A stretch of 64,000 bases of DNA from an uncultured Candidatus Saccharibacteria bacterium (GCA_964594155.1 CAZQLH010000001.1:74132-138131); one strand, 5' to 3'; positions 39,534 through 63,679 are shown, counted from the first letter of the stretch. Notes: generated by a model from the sequence alone, not told the origin. A program made the numbers and translations.

Positions 39534-40010
39534 TTATTTAAGCTCAACAGATGCTCCTGCTTGTTCCAATTTCTTTTTCATTTCTTCTGCTTCTTCTTTT
39601 TTAATTCCTTGTTTAATTACCTTAGGCGCGCCATCAACTAAGTCCTTGGCTTCTTTAAGGCCTAAATCAGTAATTTCTTTAACTGCTTTAATAACCGCTA
39701 TTTTTTGCTCGCCAGCTGTTTTAAGCTCTACGTCAAAAGCGCTTTTTTCAGCAGCTTTTTCTCCTCCTTCATCTGAGGCTCCAGCTGCTGCTGGAGCAGT
39801 CCCGCTGTACTGCGGAACGCTAACGCCAAACTTCTCTTCTAAAACTTTAACTAATTCTGCTAAATCTAAAACGCTTAGTTCTTCAATTTGTTTAACTAAG
39901 TCCTTAAATTTAGCTGGAACTTTAACTTTTTCTTTTTTTTCTTTTTCTTTCCCGACGTCTTTTGAGTCGGGATCCCGATCTTGCGTCGGGGCTTTTTTTT
40001 CTTCCGCCAT
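39534..40010 (-). CDS. rplL: 50S ribosomal protein L7/L12 with an unusual ~35-aa Lys/Glu-rich N-terminal extension
   Basis: The core [29 protein letters not shown] is followed by an Ala/Gly hinge and the C-terminal domain ...[55 protein letters not shown]. No alternative start codon lies inside the extension. Confidence 0.8.
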
Positions 40011-40746: not shown

Positions 40747-41718
40747 TTAATTCAAATACTTAGCCTTATTTTCCTTATGCTCTTCAAAAGTTTTGCTGAA
40801 AACTGTTTCTCCGTCAGGTTTTGATAAAAAGAAATTGTAATCGCTTTTTTTAGGGTAAATAGCCGCCTTAATTGCTTCCAACCCAGGATTAGAAATCGGA
40901 CCAGGCGGCAAGCCAATATTCTTATATGTATTATACGGCGAATCAATTTCAGTATCTTCAGTAGAATAAATCCATTTATCTATCTCTAAAATATAGGCAA
41001 TAGTAGCGCAGGACTGTAAAGGATAATCAATGGCTATTCTTTTCCAAAAAATACCAGCTGCTATTTGACGATCTTCATAAAGCGGAACTTCTTTTTCCAA
41101 TAAACTGGCCATGATAATTATTTGTTCAATTGTTTTTCCTTGCTTGGCTATTTCCTGTTTTAATTCTTGGTCCAGTTTTGTATTAAAATTTTCTTTCATA
41201 ATCTCAATAATTTCCTCTAAACTTATATTCTTGCTGAATTCATAAGTATCAGGAAATAAATAACCTTCTAATTCTGATTGCTGGGCTAATTCGCCTAATT
41301 CAATCAGCCCTGCTTTGGCTAATCTGGCGTCAATCTGTTTTAAGGTAAAACCCTCTGGAATAGTTATTAATACTTCTGAAGAAATAATTTCTCCTTTGAC
41401 TATTTTCCGAGATATTTGAAAAACACTCCAAGCAGGATTTAAAGAATACTCGCCAGCTTGCAATTGAGCTGCCCAGCCCTTATAGAAAATATAGGCCATG
41501 AACCAAGTCTTGTTTTTAATTAATTCTGCTTCTTCTAAATTAGCAGTAATTTCTTTTAATCCTTGGCCTTGTTTAATAATAAATATTTGTTCAGTTCCTT
41601 TAACAGCTAAAGGAGTTGTAATTTGATAATATATAAAAAAACCAATACTCAAACAAAAAATAACTAAAATAATAATTAGGCAAAATAAAATAAATCTTTT
41701 TTTATTAACTATTTTCAT
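40747..41718 (-). CDS. mltG: Endolytic murein transglycosylase MltG (YceG-like)
   Basis: N-terminal TM followed by a YceG domain with conserved GLPPGPISNPG and YNTYxxxGLPP motifs. Confidence 0.8.
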   Translation of the reverse strand: MKIVNKKRFILFCLIIILVIFCLSIGFFIYYQITTPLAVKGTEQIFIIKQGQGLKEITANLEEAELIKNKTWFMAYIFYKGWAAQLQAGEYSLNPAWSVFQISRKIVKGEIISSEVLITIPEGFTLKQIDARLAKAGLIELGELAQQSELEGYLFPDTYEFSKNISLEEIIEIMKENFNTKLDQELKQEIAKQGKTIEQIIIMASLLEKEVPLYEDRQIAAGIFWKRIAIDYPLQSCATIAYILEIDKWIYSTEDTEIDSPYNTYKNIGLPPGPISNPGLEAIKAAIYPKKSDYNFFLSKPDGETVFSKTFEEHKENKAKYLN

Positions 41719-42347
41719 AGTTTATCGCTAATTAACGGCACAAAAACAAATCCTGGATACTCTTTTTCTTCAAATTGATTTTCTTTCTTCTTTATTAACA
41801 GCCAAATACTGTTTTCAACTGGCGTTACTAACCGTCCATTAACCTTTAATTGTTTTTTCCAAGCTTGTGGTATTTCTCTGGCTGAAGCTGCTGCGATAAT
41901 TTTATCAAAAGGAGCTTGTTCTTCTAATCCTTTTGAGCCGTCTCCGCAAATAAATTCAACATTCTTAAAATTATACTTAGAAACATTATCCTGGCCAAAA
42001 TCCCTTAATTCTGGAATTATTTCGATAGCGTGAACAAATCCTTGGGGACCAACTATTTGACACAACATTGCTGTTTGCCAGCCAGAACCAGAACCAATAT
42101 CTAAAATTTTATCTCCTTGTTTTGGCTGAAGCAGTTCCAGTATAAAAGCCACTGTTAATGGCTGTGAAATGGTCTGGCCATAACCAATAGACAAAGGAGC
42201 GTTAAATTCATTAACAAATTCTTTTCCTTTTTCCCTTGTTATCTCCTTAGGAACAAAATCAGCCCGTTTGATTTTCTTAAAGGCATTAATAATCAACGGG
42301 CTTTTTAAATACTTCTGTTCAATTAATTCATCAATTAGTTTATTCAT
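41715..42347 (-). CDS. pcm: Protein-L-isoaspartate O-methyltransferase
   Basis: 210 aa. The SAM-binding motif ILDIGSGSGWQTAML and the PCMT-like N-terminus (FVPKE...GQTISQP) are present. Confidence 0.8.
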   Translation of the reverse strand: MNKLIDELIEQKYLKSPLIINAFKKIKRADFVPKEITREKGKEFVNEFNAPLSIGYGQTISQPLTVAFILELLQPKQGDKILDIGSGSGWQTAMLCQIVGPQGFVHAIEIIPELRDFGQDNVSKYNFKNVEFICGDGSKGLEEQAPFDKIIAAASAREIPQAWKKQLKVNGRLVTPVENSIWLLIKKKENQFEEKEYPGFVFVPLISDKL

Positions 42348-44150: not shown

Positions 44151-44822
44151 CTATTTATTAATATCCATTTTTTTAAGTTCTTGTAAAATCTCTTTAACTT
44201 TTTTATCCTTGGAGCCGAGCTTAACAGCCATTTCTAATGATGCCTTGGCATCATGATAATTATGCTGTTTCCAGTATAGAATTCCTAAAAATTTATAAGC
44301 AGTAATATTATCAGGGTTTTCAATAATTAAATCAATCCATCTTTGTTCTTCCTTGATTGGTTTTTTAAGCTCTTCAATAGGAAGATCATCTTCGTCCAAT
44401 TCTGGCAAATGATCTGCTGTTTCTTCTTTGTTGATTTTAATAGAAACTTCTTCTTCTGCCTTAACAGAAGCATCTTTTTTGACTTCTCGGCGCTTAGCTT
44501 CTTTTTGCCTAATCCATTCCTTTGATTTCTGGGTCATTATTTGAGATCTGTTTCTTAACCAGCTAATCCATTTGGTAAGCAAGTTCTCTATCTTCAAAAA
44601 TATTATCTTTATCTTTCTTAGAAATTTCTCTAAGAAGATTATAAGGTTGAGCCAGTGCTGCTTGTAATTTACTTCTTTAATTCTATGAATAACTCCTTTT
44701 TTTCTGCTTAGAATAGTTATTTCTTCTTCAGATAAATTAGCTAAAGCAGGAATCTTTTGATAAACAATGATTCCCAGCCAAATAAAGCTGAAAAAGATAA
44801 ATAAGTAAAGAATGATACTCAT
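44151..44822 (-). CDS. Hypothetical membrane-anchored protein with a C-terminal TPR-like repeat
   Basis: 223 aa. An N-terminal TM, a charged coiled region and a C-terminal AYKFLGILYWKQHNYHDAKASLEMAVKL TPR-like motif. The stop overlaps tsf. Confidence 0.4.
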   Translation of the reverse strand: MSIILYLFIFFSFIWLGIIVYQKIPALANLSEEEITILSRKKGVIHRIKEVNYKQHWLNLIIFLEKFLRKIKIIFLKIENLLTKWISWLRNRSQIMTQKSKEWIRQKEAKRREVKKDASVKAEEEVSIKINKEETADHLPELDEDDLPIEELKKPIKEEQRWIDLIIENPDNITAYKFLGILYWKQHNYHDAKASLEMAVKLGSKDKKVKEILQELKKMDINK

Positions 44823-45268
44823 ATTTCTAATCTTACAAACTTGCCTATTTTAATATTCTCCCCTAATTTTCCAACCGCTTCAGCAATTAAGTCCTGAATG
44901 GTCTTTTGTTCATCTTTAATAAATGGCTGTGATAAAAGCTCTTTTGTGTCATTAGGATTCATAGCGGTAATATGCATTGCTATATCGCGAGTCAATTGCT
45001 TAAATTCCTCGTTCCGAGCCACAAAATCTGTCTCACAGTTTAATTCTAAAATAACGCCTATTTTATTATTACTATGAATATAGGCATCAATTAAACCTTG
45101 TTTAACTTCTCTGTCTGATTTCTTAATTGCTTTTTCCGCTCCTTTTTTCTCTAAGATTTTTAAAGCTTCTTTTTCATTGCCTTTGGTCTTTTCCAAGGCT
45201 TTTTTACATTCCATGATTGAAAGGTTTGTTTTTTTACGAAGCTGTTTAACTTGATCAATTGAAATCAT
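44819..45268 (-). CDS. tsf: Elongation factor Ts, minimal form (149 aa)
   Basis: The N-terminal UBA-like IDQVKQLRKKTNLSIMECKKALEKTKGNEKEALKIL is followed by the core motif LNCETDFVARNEEF. It is downstream of rpsB. It is far shorter than the ~280-aa bacterial EF-Ts. Confidence 0.8.
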   Translation of the reverse strand: MISIDQVKQLRKKTNLSIMECKKALEKTKGNEKEALKILEKKGAEKAIKKSDREVKQGLIDAYIHSNNKIGVILELNCETDFVARNEEFKQLTRDIAMHITAMNPNDTKELLSQPFIKDEQKTIQDLIAEAVGKLGENIKIGKFVRLEI

Positions 45269-45269
45269 A

Positions 45270-46022
45270 TTACTTTAATACTTTAGCTACTGCGCCTAAA
45301 ATCATTCTTAAAGACGAAATAGCGTCATCATTAGATGGAATTGGATAATCAATAATGCTTGGATCTGCATTAGTGTCGCATAAGCCAACTATAGGAATAT
45401 TTTTCATATTAGCTTCTTTAACAGCTAGTTTTTCTTTGTAGGTATCCACCACAAACAAAACATCAGGCAATTTAATTATTTCCTTAATGCCGCTAAACTG
45501 CCGGCTTAATTTCTGTAATTCAATACCAAATTCATGTTGTTCTTTTTTGGTATATTTTTTTAATTCGCCTGTATTCTTTTTTTTCTCTAAATCCCTGAAA
45601 TGCTCTAAGCGTTTGGAAATAACGCCAAAATTAGTTAAAGTTCCGCCTATCCATTTCTCTGTAACATAAGGCATTTTAACTTCTTGAGCAGTTTTCTGAG
45701 TAATCTCTTTAACAGCTATTTTTGTGCCAACAAAAAGAATAATTTCTTTTTTTAATTTAATCTTTTGAAGAAATTCCAATGCTTGTTTTAATTTTTCCTG
45801 TGTTTTTTTCAAATCAATAACATGAACATTGTTTCGAACAGTAAAAATATATTGATCCATTTTTGGGTTTTTTCGGGACGTCCGATGCCCAAAATGCACT
45901 CCAGCTTTTAGCATTTCTTCCAAATCAGGAATCTCCTTGTCTATTTTAACAGATTTTTTAACAACAGCTGCAGCTGTTTTTGTTTTTTTGATTGTTTTTT
46001 TTGTTTTTTTCTCTTTAATCAT
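45270..46022 (-). CDS. rpsB: 30S ribosomal protein S2
   Basis: 250 aa. MLKAGVHFGHRTSRKNPKMDQYIF is the S2 signature. A Lys-rich N-terminal extension is present. Confidence 0.9.
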   Translation of the reverse strand: MIKEKKTKKTIKKTKTAAAVVKKSVKIDKEIPDLEEMLKAGVHFGHRTSRKNPKMDQYIFTVRNNVHVIDLKKTQEKLKQALEFLQKIKLKKEIILFVGTKIAVKEITQKTAQEVKMPYVTEKWIGGTLTNFGVISKRLEHFRDLEKKKNTGELKKYTKKEQHEFGIELQKLSRQFSGIKEIIKLPDVLFVVDTYKEKLAVKEANMKNIPIVGLCDTNADPSIIDYPIPSNDDAISSLRMILGAVAKVLK

Positions 46023-46153: not shown

Positions 46154-46393
46154 ATGAAAAAAGATATACATCCAAAATATTATCCTAAAGCTAAAATCAA
46201 GTGCGCTTGCGGCGCTGTTTTTGAAATTGGCTCAACCCAACCTGAAATAGATGTAGAAATTTGTTCTCAATGCCATCCTTTTTACACAGGCAAGGAAAGA
46301 ATTATTGAAACTGGCCAAGTAGAAAGGTTTAGACAGCGATTAGCTAAAAAACCCGCCTTTGCTAAAGCTTCGGCGAGGCGAAGAAAGAAATGA
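46154..46393 (+). CDS. rpmE: 50S ribosomal protein L31
   Basis: 79 aa reading [28 protein letters not shown]...[10 protein letters not shown], the L31 Zn-ribbon signature. Confidence 0.9.
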
Positions 46394-47127
46394 ATAAAGC
46401 TATTATTATGGAAATCAGAGCTGGCGCAGGCGGAGAAGAAGCAGCTCTTTTTGCAGCTGATCTTTTTCAAATGTATTCCCGTTTTGCTGAAAAACAAAAT
46501 TGGCCTACCTTTCTTATTGGAAATAATCCTACTGGCTTAGGCGGTTACCGGGAAATCATTTTTGAAATTAAAGGAAAAGAAGCTTATATTAAACTCAGAC
46601 AAGAAGCTGGCGTTCATCGGGTCCAGCGCATTCCAACTACTGAAAAATCTGGCCGGGTTCATACTTCTACTGTTTCTGTGGCTGTATTGCCGATAGCTAA
46701 TGAAACAGAGATTAAAATTAATCCCCAGGATTTAAGAATTGATGTTTTAAGGGCTTCTGGACCAGGCGGCCAGCATGTTAATAAGATTGAATCAGCTGTT
46801 AGAATCACTCACTTGCCTACTGGCTTGGTAGTCAATTGCCAAAAAGGAAGATCTCAACAACACAATAAGGAAAAAGCTATGCAGGTTTTAAGAGCTCGTC
46901 TTTTATCTAAAAAACAAAAAGAAGAATTAGGACAAAGAAGCGCTAACCGCCGCGAGCAAATTGGCACTGCTGACCGTTCTGAAAAAATCCGCACCTATAA
47001 CTTTCCTCAAAACAGGATTACTGACCATAGAATTAAAAAATCCTGGCATAATTTAGATAAAATAATTGATGGCGATTTAAAACCAATCATTAAAGTTTTT
47101 GAAAAAATTAAAAAAAAGGAGGAATAA
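46390..47127 (+). CDS. prfA: Class-I peptide chain release factor, RF1-like, lacking N-terminal domain 1 (245 aa)
   Basis: It begins at the domain-2 segment [27 protein letters not shown]. The [17 protein letters not shown] (PxT-type) tripeptide region and the GGQ motif ([23 protein letters not shown]) are present. An in-frame TAA 27 nt upstream of the ATG rules out an N-terminal extension. Confidence 0.75.
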
Positions 47128-47128
47128 A

Positions 47129-48112
47129 ATGAAAAAACGAATCTTTAGCGGTGTTCGACCAAGCGGATCAATTCACATTGGCAATTATTTAGGCGCGATT
47201 AAAAACTGGGTTGAAATTCAGAAAAAGCATGATTCTGTTTTTTGCATTGTTGATTTGCATGCCTTAACTACTTCTTATCAACCTAAAGAATTAACAAAAA
47301 ATACTTTGGGAACAGCTGCTGCTTATTTAGCTCTTGGACTTGATCCTAAAAAAAATATAATCTTTATTCAATCGCATGTTCCAGAACATACTGAAATGAC
47401 CTGGCTGTTAAACACTATTGTTAAAATCCAAGAACTGCAACGAATGACGCAATTTAAAGATAAATCCAAAGAAAAACCGTTTAATATTAATGCTGGTCTT
47501 TTAAATTATCCAGTTTTAATGGCAGCTGATATTTTATTATACAACACAGATGTTGTTCCAGTTGGCCAAGACCAAAAACAGCATGTTGAATTAGCAAGAA
47601 CCTTAGCGCGCAGATTTAACCGGCTTTATGGAAAAACCTTAACTGTGCCTGACGTTTTAATCAAAAAAGAAGGAGCTAAGATTATGCGCCTTGATAATCC
47701 TTTGAAAAAAATGGCTAAAAGCGCTGCTAATCCATACAATGCTATTGCTTTAACTGACTCGCCTGCTTTAATTAAAGACAAAGTTAAAAAAGCTGTAACT
47801 GATTCTGGAAAAGAAATAAAATACAATTCCAAAAAACCAGCTATTGCTAATTTAATGGCTATTTATCATTGTTTTTCTGAAATGTCTTTTAATGAAATTG
47901 AGAATAAGTATAAAAATAAAAACTATGCTGATTTTAAGAAAGATTTAGCTGATATAATTATCAAAGGATTAGCTTCATTCCAGAAAAAGAAAAAAGATCT
48001 GGAAAAGAATCCAGATCAGATTAAGAAAATCTTAGACAATGGAGCTAAACAAGCGCAAACTATTGCTCAGAAAACATTAAAAGATGTTAAAAAGAAAATG
48101 GGATTGATTTAA
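47129..48112 (+). CDS. trpS: Tryptophanyl-tRNA synthetase
   Basis: The start is taken at MKKRIFSGVRPSGSIHIGNYLG (HIGH-type motif), with AGGAGG 6 nt upstream. KMSKS-like KMAKS is present. The ORF track begins 10 codons earlier, inside the prfA 3' end. Confidence 0.9.
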   Translation: MKKRIFSGVRPSGSIHIGNYLGAIKNWVEIQKKHDSVFCIVDLHALTTSYQPKELTKNTLGTAAAYLALGLDPKKNIIFIQSHVPEHTEMTWLLNTIVKIQELQRMTQFKDKSKEKPFNINAGLLNYPVLMAADILLYNTDVVPVGQDQKQHVELARTLARRFNRLYGKTLTVPDVLIKKEGAKIMRLDNPLKKMAKSAANPYNAIALTDSPALIKDKVKKAVTDSGKEIKYNSKKPAIANLMAIYHCFSEMSFNEIENKYKNKNYADFKKDLADIIIKGLASFQKKKKDLEKNPDQIKKILDNGAKQAQTIAQKTLKDVKKKMGLI

Positions 48113-61300: not shown

Positions 61301-63679
61301 TTAATACCCTGTATTTTCTATTAATTTCTCTAATAAGCTTCTTGGAAAAATTGGCGGATTTTCTGTTAAGGCCTGATGATACAAAACAGTAGAAGGAGTT
61401 AAAGCAGGCAATGTATTCATTTCAATAATCAATAAATCCCCTGTTTTAATATTAGTAAAAGTATCAATTCGCGAATAGCCTTTTAATTTCATCTTATTAA
61501 CCATTTTCCCTATTAAGGACTTAGTTCTATTTAACGCTTTTTTATTCATAATAGTTTCTGGCGGCGGGGTGATATTTACCCCGGTTCCTCCTTGAAACTT
61601 TTCCTCAACTGTTAAAACCTCGCCTTCAGCCACAGTAATGCTTGGATTAAAAACCCTTAATTTGCCTTTGTCCTCAGCTACCCCTATGGTTGTTTCCAGC
61701 CAACCGCTTCTCTGACGATGTTTTAACTTATTCCCTTTAACCCTTAAAACATCTGTTTCTATGAATTTCTCAAAAAGCAGTTCCTTCATTGGCTCTAATG
61801 GCATTTCTAAAATATCATTCTGGTTTTTAAAAGTGTTCTTAGATACAGAAGTTGCCCTTGATTTAATCACTTCAATGTATTTCCTTAATTCATTAACTGA
61901 AAAAAGATGAACTACTCCGGAAGAACAGCCATCAGCGCGCGGTTTAACCACTATTGTATCAGCGTCTAATTCTTGACGCAGTTTTTTCCAAAAATCTTTT
62001 AATCTATTGTTTCTCAGGTTAAATAAATACTTGGTTTGAACAAGTTTTTTAGGAATAGGATTTAATCCCTTGATTTTTAAGCTTTTAATAAATTCAGCTG
62101 TTTTCCATTTATCCATTCCTAATCTAGAAACTCTTTCATCAGGCCCATTAAACTTAACTTTTTGTTCAGCCAATGTTTTCTGTAAATTTCCGTTTTCTCC
62201 ATCTCCGCCATGCAAAGCAATGAAAATAAAATCTGAATCTTTAATAAATTTATCCAAAGCCATGCCGGTTGGCTCAAAAAAATCCTGTTCATCTTTATCT
62301 TCTGATAAATCTAATCTATTTCTGGCTCTTCTTTCAAACATTCCTAATCTTTCTTTAGCTGTCTGGTAATTCCTGCAATTATCAATAATCTCTTCAACAG
62401 TATGGTTTAAAGTTAAATGATAAGGCAAGTGCCAGACCCGTCCGTCAATATCCCATAAATACGGCTGTGGATCATATTTTTTTGAATTGCGAAGTTTTAA
62501 CCAGGTATTGGTTCCGCTCATTAAAGAAACCTGTCTTTCTGAAGTATCTCCGCCAAAAAGAATATTGATTGGTTTTCTTTTTCTTTTGATTTTTAAATAA
62601 TTCTTGTTTTTCTCTTCTGGAAAACTAATATTATGGCGAAAACAGGCCTGTTTAACAATATATCTTAAAATATCTCTATGACTCATCCCCACTCTTGATG
62701 CTTGCTGGAATAAAAAGCTGTTTTGTTCCATTCCGCTAATCGGATTAAAATCAGAAAACCATATTTTGTTATCAGGCAGAACCCAGCCGTCAAATCTGCC
62801 AAAATCTTCCATTTCTAAAAGAGAAAATAACTGTTCTGCTTGTGTTTGAATTGTTTCTATTGTTTCATTGTTGAACCGAGGCGGACAATGATAAGTTACT
62901 TGTCGAGTAGGCAAATATTTTTTTCTGTAATCAAAAATCTGATGCTTAGTATAATCTGCCTCTATTTCTGTTGGAACTAAAGCCACGGGCAAGCCAAAGC
63001 GATTCTTTAGGATAATCACTGTAAATTCTATGCCTTGAACAAATGGCTCTATCACCACCCGCTTATCCATTCGTTTAGAAAAAAGCAATTTTGCTTTTTC
63101 CAACGCTTCTTCAGGAGTAGACACGGAAAAAACACCAATACTGGAACCGCCAGCAGCCGGCTTAACCACAGCTCGCTTAATATTATGTTTTTCAAAAAAA
63201 CTCTTTATAACTTGCTTATGATTATTATAATGTATTTTCAAAACATCTGAAGGAAAACCAAAAAAACCATGCTGCTTGATAAACTCATTGGCAATATATT
63301 TATCAAAAGCTCTTTTACATGTTTTAGAATCAGAACCAATAAAAGGAATATTATTCTTTTCAAAAAAGCTTTGGATTCCGCCATCTTCGCCAAAAGCGCC
63401 ATGTATCACTGGAAAAGCAATATCTGCTTTTTTAAGCAAGCGAATTAAAGATTGATCAGCCAAAGGCGAAGCAGTCTGTTTTAATTTAAAATCAAAATCT
63501 GAAGGAGTATTAGAATAAAGCTGGGAAATAGAAATCTGATAAGGGTTCTTTTTGGAATCAAAATAAAAAGGGATGATTTCAATTTTATCAGAACTCAAAT
63601 GATCTAAAACAGACCGAGCTGAATTCAATGAAATTCCCCTTTCCAATGAAGGCCCTCCGCAAACCAACGCTACTTTCAT
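61301..63679 (-). CDS. Tandem fusion of two D-alanine--D-alanine ligase-like ATP-grasp modules (792 aa)
   Basis: The Ddl N-terminal signature occurs twice: MKVALVCGGPSLERGISLNSARSV and, at about residue 370, PINILFGGDTSERQVSLMSGTNT. Each is followed by an ATP-grasp-like region. Confidence 0.7.
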   Translation of the reverse strand: MKVALVCGGPSLERGISLNSARSVLDHLSSDKIEIIPFYFDSKKNPYQISISQLYSNTPSDFDFKLKQTASPLADQSLIRLLKKADIAFPVIHGAFGEDGGIQSFFEKNNIPFIGSDSKTCKRAFDKYIANEFIKQHGFFGFPSDVLKIHYNNHKQVIKSFFEKHNIKRAVVKPAAGGSSIGVFSVSTPEEALEKAKLLFSKRMDKRVVIEPFVQGIEFTVIILKNRFGLPVALVPTEIEADYTKHQIFDYRKKYLPTRQVTYHCPPRFNNETIETIQTQAEQLFSLLEMEDFGRFDGWVLPDNKIWFSDFNPISGMEQNSFLFQQASRVGMSHRDILRYIVKQACFRHNISFPEEKNKNYLKIKRKRKPINILFGGDTSERQVSLMSGTNTWLKLRNSKKYDPQPYLWDIDGRVWHLPYHLTLNHTVEEIIDNCRNYQTAKERLGMFERRARNRLDLSEDKDEQDFFEPTGMALDKFIKDSDFIFIALHGGDGENGNLQKTLAEQKVKFNGPDERVSRLGMDKWKTAEFIKSLKIKGLNPIPKKLVQTKYLFNLRNNRLKDFWKKLRQELDADTIVVKPRADGCSSGVVHLFSVNELRKYIEVIKSRATSVSKNTFKNQNDILEMPLEPMKELLFEKFIETDVLRVKGNKLKHRQRSGWLETTIGVAEDKGKLRVFNPSITVAEGEVLTVEEKFQGGTGVNITPPPETIMNKKALNRTKSLIGKMVNKMKLKGYSRIDTFTNIKTGDLLIIEMNTLPALTPSTVLYHQALTENPPIFPRSLLEKLIENTGY

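Follow-up and report, generated by a model that had tools for sequence, protein, structure and literature searches.

Can a bacterium terminate translation with a housekeeping release factor 1 (RF1) from which an entire domain is missing? To our knowledge, domain 1 is a textbook part of every bacterial RF1 and RF2, where it touches uL11, bL12 and, functionally, RF3, and the evidence that it can be dispensed with has come so far from engineered deletions in Escherichia coli. The question is raised by a stretch of 64,000 nucleotides from an uncultured Candidatus Saccharibacteria bacterium, analysed here as a whole and called the window. It contains a gene, prfA-short (46390-47127, plus strand), that encodes an RF1 of 245 residues consisting of domains 2, 3 and 4 only, as judged from the ORF call, Pfam, NCBIfam, PDB searches and an AlphaFold2 model compared by Foldseek. 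With a probability of about 80%, we consider it to be the housekeeping prfA, an RF1 ortholog that lost its domain 1 (~105 residues) by deletion in an ancestor of the Portnoybacteria/Paceibacteria-type CPR.

The first point to settle is whether the reading frame is complete. It opens with ATG and closes with TAA. An in-frame TAA can be read in the DNA 27 nt 5' of the start (46363-46365, plus strand), and the eight codons that separate it from the ATG (AGC TTC GGC GAG GCG AAG AAA GAA) include no ATG, GTG or TTG. The gene for ribosomal protein L31, rpmE (46154-46393, plus strand; NCBIfam L31 equivalog), is conserved directly 5' of short as well as full-length prfA in CPR loci, and here its TGA at 46391-46393 overlaps the prfA-short ATG at 46390-46392 in an ATGA. 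A longer form is impossible because of the upstream TAA and the rpmE stop that overlaps the start. Moreover, the upstream DNA consists of L31 and a 131-bp divergent intergenic region between rpmE and rpsB, so there is no space for the ~315 nt of a domain 1. Downstream, trpS (47129-48112, plus strand; NCBIfam equivalog, 356 bits) begins 1 nt past the prfA-short stop. On the minus strand, rpsB (45270-46022; Pfam Ribosomal_S2), divergent from rpmE, and tsf (44819-45268; NCBIfam tsf) serve as synteny anchors.

A preliminary description of this DNA had read much of this in the same way: a 245-residue ORF that keeps PTT and GGQ, which we place at residues 82-84 and 126-128, barred from any longer form by the TAA and the rpmE stop, and set in an rpmE-prfA-trpS order that is borne out by the NCBIfam equivalogs on either side. 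Its placing of the start at the domain-2 boundary needs one correction. The coordinates stand, 46390 being the supported start, but 'MEIRAGAGG', taken as the beginning of the protein, comes six residues late; relatives open with M-x-K-G-I-I-I-E-I-R.

Profile searches assign the protein to a family and locate what is missing from it. The Pfam RF-1 domain (PF00472, 2.9e-43) is matched in full, and of the PCRF domain (PF03462, 1.4e-42) only profile positions 100-194 of 194 are covered. Set against RF1, RF2 and PrfH, the protein is RF1-type, with NCBIfam scores of 391.3 bits for prfA (positions 103-344 of 347), 246.6 for prfB, 98.5 for PrfH and 47.2 for ArfB. It falls just under both curated prfA cut-offs (391.3 versus 400 for NF001859; 386.9 versus 423.25 for TIGR00019), as expected for a truncation, because about 100 profile positions are missing. 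The best PDB matches are RF1 from T. maritima (E = 1e-87) and from T. thermophilus (1e-85), aligned to their ends from residue 87 and 107, respectively, with a gapless domain 2 and 53-56% identity across domains 2-4; PrfH chains reach only E = 1.6e-14, against 1e-85 for RF1.

The functional motifs are retained as well: GxGGxE, RVQR-PTT, HTST, GGQ and the switch loop. Using an ungapped offset of +102 from prfA-short to T. thermophilus RF1, residues G14/E17, Q79, P82-T-T84, T92 and G126-G-Q128 are equivalent to G116/E119, Q181, P184-x-T186, T194 and G228-G-Q230. By alignment, GAGGEE (residues 12-17; 46423-46440) corresponds to the tip of helix alpha5 and is invariant in 66 short RF1s. The PxT motif P82-T83-T84 (46633-46641), with RVQR (Q79) before it and HTST (T92) after it, and the catalytic motif G126-G127-Q128 (46765-46773) follow on the same plus strand; P82, T84, Q79, T92, G14, E17 and the GGQ are invariant among 66 homologs. 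The helix-alpha5 tip, with its equivalents of T. thermophilus G116 and E119, is what we take to read U1. From RF1 termination complexes, the residues aligned here presumably catalyse hydrolysis and recognise U1, A2 and the third-position purine. The RF1 set of PxT, Q and T is not known to read G at position 2.

An AlphaFold2 model built with 66 homologs (mean pLDDT 83.7) has ribosome-bound RF1 structures as its top Foldseek matches, covering 243-244 of 245 columns at TM 0.70 and rmsd ~5.8 Å, and is less close to the compact RF1 crystal forms (rmsd 11-13 Å). The protein thus comprises all of RF1 domains 2-4 and has no additional part. It shares with bacterial RF1 (prfA; TIGR00019/NF001859) the PxT, GGQ, alpha5-tip and switch-loop residues, the fold and the rpmE-adjacent locus. 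It differs in lacking the N-terminal helical domain 1 (the 'GTPase-interacting domain', ~105 aa), in scoring below the curated equivalog cut-offs, and in having a strongly basic core where that of RF1 has a charge of about zero.

Gene order provides a further handle on orthology. The arrangement tsf<-rpsB / rpmE->prfA recurs in 12 loci with a short RF1 (L001-L011, L018) and in a Saccharibacteria locus in which prfA encodes 352 residues (L013). Two other loci (L012, L015) have a full-length prfA of 353 and 354 residues with rpmE immediately upstream, and in Shapirobacteria (L017) rpmE is followed by a prfA of 232 residues. trpS lies 3' of the short prfA in 10 related loci. prfA-short is a positional ortholog of prfA because it occupies the slot of full-length prfA in related lineages. 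The earlier suggestion that the operon setting marks a housekeeping RF1 is strengthened accordingly, since the rpmE-adjacent position holds the full-length prfA in other CPR genomes.

The competing view that fares best is that of an accessory paralog, PrfH-like or rescue-type, with a full-length prfA elsewhere in charge of housekeeping termination. Natural RF homologs without domain 1 and with special roles do exist (PrfH, ArfB), and our view of this genome spans the 64-kb window and ~14 kb of flanks (~9 kb past the left end, ~5 kb past the right). RF-H (PrfH, TIGR03072) is such a natural homolog of ~200 aa that has a codon-recognition-like domain and GGQ, but its decoding residues are altered and it is always paired with an upstream, translationally coupled rtcB-family gene. 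In contrast, prfA-short has RF1-type decoding residues, scores 98.5 bits against a PrfH cut-off of 166.65, has rpmE as its upstream gene and trpS as its downstream neighbour, and no RtcB lies within 10 kb on either side. The rescue hydrolases ArfB (YaeJ), ICT1 and C12orf65 are GGQ-domain homologs that also work without domain 1. Unlike prfA-short, in which domains 2 and 4 are fully present, they have neither of these codon-recognition domains, and they insert a basic C-terminal tail into the empty mRNA channel; the match of prfA-short to the ArfB model is confined to residues 105-140 (47 bits, cut-off 100). RF2 (prfB, TIGR00020) is a class-I paralog that shares the four-domain layout of RF1, and its GGQ, but has SPF instead of the PxT seen here as PTT, and prfA-short stays at 246.6 bits versus a cut-off of 370.

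A search for a second factor is equally relevant to this view. A tblastn search of the window with E. coli RF1 and the short RF1 as queries found no RF gene other than prfA-short itself, and neither the ~14 kb of flanks nor the related and control loci (~0.3 Mb) contained a second one. Given these results and the position next to rpmE, we regard a paralog as unlikely. By sequence, motifs, fold and locus prfA-short is an RF1 ortholog and not a PrfH, ArfB or RF2. In the left flank, some 6-7 kb beyond the end of the window, a 129-aa ORF (L151:18597-18986) bears a weak precomputed Pfam label 'ArfC'. A Pfam rerun did not reproduce it and gave only a sub-threshold Ada zinc-binding match.

An RF1 also raises the question of how UGA is read. 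Among 69 non-overlapping ORFs of the window, TAA closes 44, TGA 14 and TAG 11; the use of TGA as a stop, pointed out before for rpmE and ftsW, is therefore real. With TGA in use and a short RF1 whose decoding residues are still of the RF1 type, an RF2 is expected. The flanks (~9 kb left, ~5 kb right) contain no RF2, RF3, PrmC or uL11, and tblastn with E. coli sequences found no uL11, uL1 or RRF in the window. A 210-aa methyltransferase at 41715-42347 was considered as PrmC and rejected, as it is a protein-L-isoaspartate methyltransferase. In metagenomes, we scanned for the pattern GGTExxDW preceded by ATGA, which gave at least 120 RF2 loci, and searched with core profiles. Among the listed matches of these searches, no RF2 of this clade was found.

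CPR-type RF2s came from Roizmanbacteria, Beckwithbacteria, WS6, Saccharimonadales-like and other Patescibacteria, not from Portnoybacteria. Each is encoded by one continuous ORF (335-375 aa) that includes domain 1 and lacks a +1 programmed frameshift site, and every intact CPR RF2 gene inspected is full length. Their signature is SPFNA(D/Q)xLRQTSFA together with GGQNVNKV, where typical RF2s have SPFDxxxRRHTSF and GGQHVN; it occurs in L129:4202-5209, L051:1759-2769, L043:4832-5896, L066:12272-13360, L070, L080 and L103. An ftsE-like ABC ATPase gene lies 3' of prfB in L129, L051, L043 and L070, followed in the first two by ftsX and another large conserved ORF.

Several apparently short RF2s dissolved on inspection. 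Four of them (L047, L083, L114, L143) are ordinary +1-frameshift prfB genes whose ORF calls were too short. Another one of 242 aa, the only such case on a long contig (P0487), is a full-length prfB broken by frameshifts (L150:9363-10729, JGI Ga0645779_10894), with pieces of domain 1, including 'EPNFWDNPQ', in two other frames just upstream of the call. This locus is a caution against counting 'short' RFs from gene calls alone. With an RF2 profile restricted to the core, which treats short and long forms equally, the listed matches were almost only full-length proteins, with few below 310 aa, and for this reason the loss of domain 1 appears, as far as these sequences tell, to be specific to RF1. 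Within Microgenomates, Roizmanbacteria and Beckwithbacteria have a full-length RF2, and the short RF1 is found in a different lineage, Shapirobacteria.

The same data bear on the idea that the short RF1 is the sole class-I factor of this organism, RF2 having been lost, and terminates at UAA, UAG and UGA without domain 1, RF2 or RF3. If true, such a single omnipotent factor would be a minimal bacterial termination system. The TGA-ended ORFs and the lack of an RF2 of the clade among the listed matches of any search fit this idea, but the latter comes from ranked best matches rather than from a whole-genome scan. Against it, the RF1-specific PxT, Q79 and T92 are invariant and show no SPF-like change, and the other CPR lineages inspected all have a full-length RF2. 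We therefore consider a sole factor improbable, and return to an RF1 that shares its task with a predicted RF2.

What, then, happened to domain 1? We built an HMM from 76 full-length RF1 N-termini. It gives 0.0 bits on prfA-short and 58-107 bits on full-length controls, in line with the initial claim that the domain is absent in its entirety. Run over six frames of the window and 29 loci with the speed filters off, the HMM found every full-length control, plus out-of-frame copies in L016 and L019, and no other domain-1 sequence (best non-control E = 0.018). No domain-1 ORF was detected in the window, the ~14 kb of flanks and 28 other loci (~0.3 Mb in total; 18 of the 28 with a short RF1). Controls apart, the six-frame scan was empty, which settles an early concern that a frameshift might conceal an upstream domain-1 ORF. 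As to one of the out-of-frame copies, the insect symbiont Candidatus Shikimatogenerans silvanidophilus (L016:9646-10723) encodes its RF1 domain 1 out of frame with domains 2-4, for which a frameshift, decay to a pseudogene or a sequencing error could account.

Relatives show several degrees of reduction. P0113 (287 aa, core 75% identical) keeps only positions 11-54 of the domain-1 HMM, and P0131, P0176, P0157, P0164, P0148 and L015 (9668-10729) keep only positions ~50-107; a leader of 27 residues precedes the core of P0124 and has no match to the HMM. A rough neighbour-joining tree of the core, calculated without bootstrap, groups the Paceibacteria-type short forms with P0113 and P0124 and places the Microgenomates-type short forms L017 and P0185 elsewhere. 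Partial remnants fused to the core and separate branches in the tree together suggest that domain 1 eroded repeatedly and stepwise in CPR rather than being relocated, and it is possible, judging from the same sequences, that the Microgenomates-type lineages lost it separately. Relocation would mean a split gene, with domain 1 encoded elsewhere as a separate small protein that joins the short RF1 in trans. The domain is indeed a flexible, loosely attached helical module (PMC1586002), and our scan covered local DNA only. However, the HMM that detected the controls found nothing in the window and the 29 loci, and in relatives domain 1 decays in place with its remnants still fused to the core, which fits loss. 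We thus give a split gene an even slimmer chance than a sole factor.

The separately branching RF1 of Candidatus Shapirobacteria (L017:9983-10678, PFLE01000004.1; 232 aa) has peculiarities of its own. It carries GGH for GGQ, its domain 3 resembles that of CPR RF2s (NVQKVSTAVRLRH...ERFQERNR), and its domain 2 has a 10-residue deletion. Taken at face value, the sequence may reflect RF1/RF2 gene conversion along with a non-canonical catalytic motif, or else a sequencing error.

Returning to the loss of domain 1 in the clade of prfA-short, we asked how widely it is shared. Fourteen contigs in JGI, ENA and Logan assemblies, which derive from different samples, carry a gene for exactly this protein, each time flanked by rpmE and trpS. 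In a collection of 5.8 billion proteins, the best 120 clusters (at 90% identity) have 71-100% identity to it and are all 235-287 aa long, all but one 235-251 aa; the named members among them are Portnoybacteria, Parcubacteria or Patescibacteria. NCBI usually labels such relatives 'PCRF domain-containing protein' because they score under the curated prfA cut-off. Across the 12 short-RF1 loci, each from a GTDB species and at 60-80% identity, the ORF is short and preceded by an in-frame stop 3-69 nt upstream. The truncation is accordingly shared by relatives, a point that the preliminary description had left to be checked. Mean column identity among 66 homologs is 79%, and with all functional motifs invariant this indicates purifying selection. 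P0121 and P0122 (477 and 481 aa), top representatives that looked like fusions, were rejected as assembly duplications. That the gene is a pseudogene or an artefact of assembly or sequencing, with the 5' part of prfA concealed by a frameshift or misassembly as happened with the 'short' RF2 P0487/L150 and perhaps with the out-of-frame domain 1 of L016, has a negligible chance of being the explanation, given the intact L31 upstream in every relative with no space for ~315 nt of domain 1, the 14 independent assemblies of an identical protein, and a truncation kept down to 60% identity under strong purifying selection.

Taking all analyses together, the most likely role of prfA-short is that of a housekeeping UAA/UAG terminator without contacts to the L11/L12 stalk or RF3. 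Domains 2-4 are predicted to form a tRNA-shaped factor that binds the A site. UAA and UAG would be read via the helix-alpha5 tip (G14, E17), Q79, P82-T-T84 and T92, upon which the GGQ (126-128) would swing into the peptidyl-transferase centre and bring about hydrolysis of the peptidyl-tRNA. UGA would be left to a separate, predicted RF2.

Engineered E. coli RF1 provides the closest precedent for such activity. Without domain 1, its codon specificity is unchanged (Mora et al. 2003, Vestergaard et al. 2005, summarised in PMC1586002). Peptide release in vitro does not depend on the domain, and the truncated factor works in vivo (PMC1586002). It has the same architecture, domains 2-4 only (PMC1586002), but it is an artificial deletion in a host that has RF3 and a canonical stalk, whereas prfA-short is naturally fixed, clade-wide, under purifying selection and carries many core substitutions. 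As for the contacts that are given up, the C-terminal domain of bL12 bridges RF1 domain I to uL11 and helps RF1 delivery (PMC6076264). RF1 domain 1 is also required to stimulate nucleotide exchange on RF3, a factor that is itself dispensable and missing from small genomes (PMC1586002). Both papers agree with the statement made at the outset that domain 1 contacts the stalk and RF3. Without it, there would be no contact with uL11, with the C-terminal domain of bL12 or with RF3 of the kind that in E. coli makes delivery and recycling faster, and the short RF1 would consequently have no assistance in binding or release. Slow-growing episymbionts could presumably afford termination of this kind.

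The composition of the core is of interest in this context. The net charge of the window protein is +16, and cores of the short clade have a mean of about +11 to +12, as compared with ~0 for full-length RF1 cores, a comparison tempered by some full-length cores that reach +13; full-length CPR cores range from -4 to +4. Domain 1 has an average net charge of -8 and whole full-length RF1s one of -9. Domain 3 and the domain-4/C-terminal part, with its Lys-rich tail, account for most of the additional positive charge. A correlation between charge and N-terminal length is gone when only representatives at 50% identity are used, so the charge shift is a property of the clade and not a general law. 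A basic core may, as a hypothesis, compensate for the lost domain-1 contacts. It is offered as a suggestion only, because one or two independent events underlie it and some full-length cores are at +13.

Other components of translation in the window deviate from the usual form too. EF-Ts (149 aa) covers only the N-terminal half of the tsf equivalog (4-145 of 293). It has 149-152 residues in 9 of 10 related loci and 177 in L008, with 194-196 in L011 and L013. EF-Ts is the second trimmed translation factor of the clade. bL12 (39534-40010, minus strand) is a 158-aa ORF whose match to the L12 profile begins at residue 35, so the atypical N-terminal extension reported for it is genuine. The extension comprises 34 K/E-rich residues, in which we looked for an internal Met and saw none. 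In relatives bL12 has 137-149 residues, the extension being conserved as a feature and variable in length. The analyses run established no link between the bL12 extension and the RF1 truncation. Outside translation, a 792-aa protein in the window (61301-63679, minus strand) consists of two D-Ala-D-Ala ligase modules in tandem, with Dala_Dala_lig_N and _C each matched twice, and is conserved on 21 contigs.

One could combine these elements into a broader picture of stalk-independent termination, in which the basic RF1 core replaces bL12/uL11-assisted delivery and the change belongs to a more general reduction of translation factors, with the 149-aa EF-Ts and the altered bL12 as further examples. 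We put this forward tentatively, as a picture that is rather doubtful in this full form; it is more likely than a single omnipotent factor.

In the literature, including a 2019 survey of RF diversity (PMC6514570), the RF-H paper and a 2024 review of Patescibacteria, we came across no account of a CPR housekeeping RF1 that naturally lacks domain 1; an earlier mention is possible. Given the deletion experiments, the mechanism itself is unsurprising. The value of the case lies in a natural deletion at the housekeeping locus that extends through a clade and is under purifying selection, in the graded remnants seen in relatives, and in the possible separate loss in Microgenomates-type lineages. There is a practical side as well, since annotation pipelines that count prfA by curated cut-offs could miss short RF1 genes.

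The short RF1s offer a minimal set with which one can probe what on-rate, accuracy and recycling owe to domain 1 and to the stalk, and they open the roles of domain 1 and stalk-assisted RF delivery in vivo to direct tests. For the organisms themselves, the findings suggest that selection on domain 1 has been relaxed across slow-growing, ultrasmall CPR bacteria, with the short RF1 as a marker of their pared-down translation apparatus.
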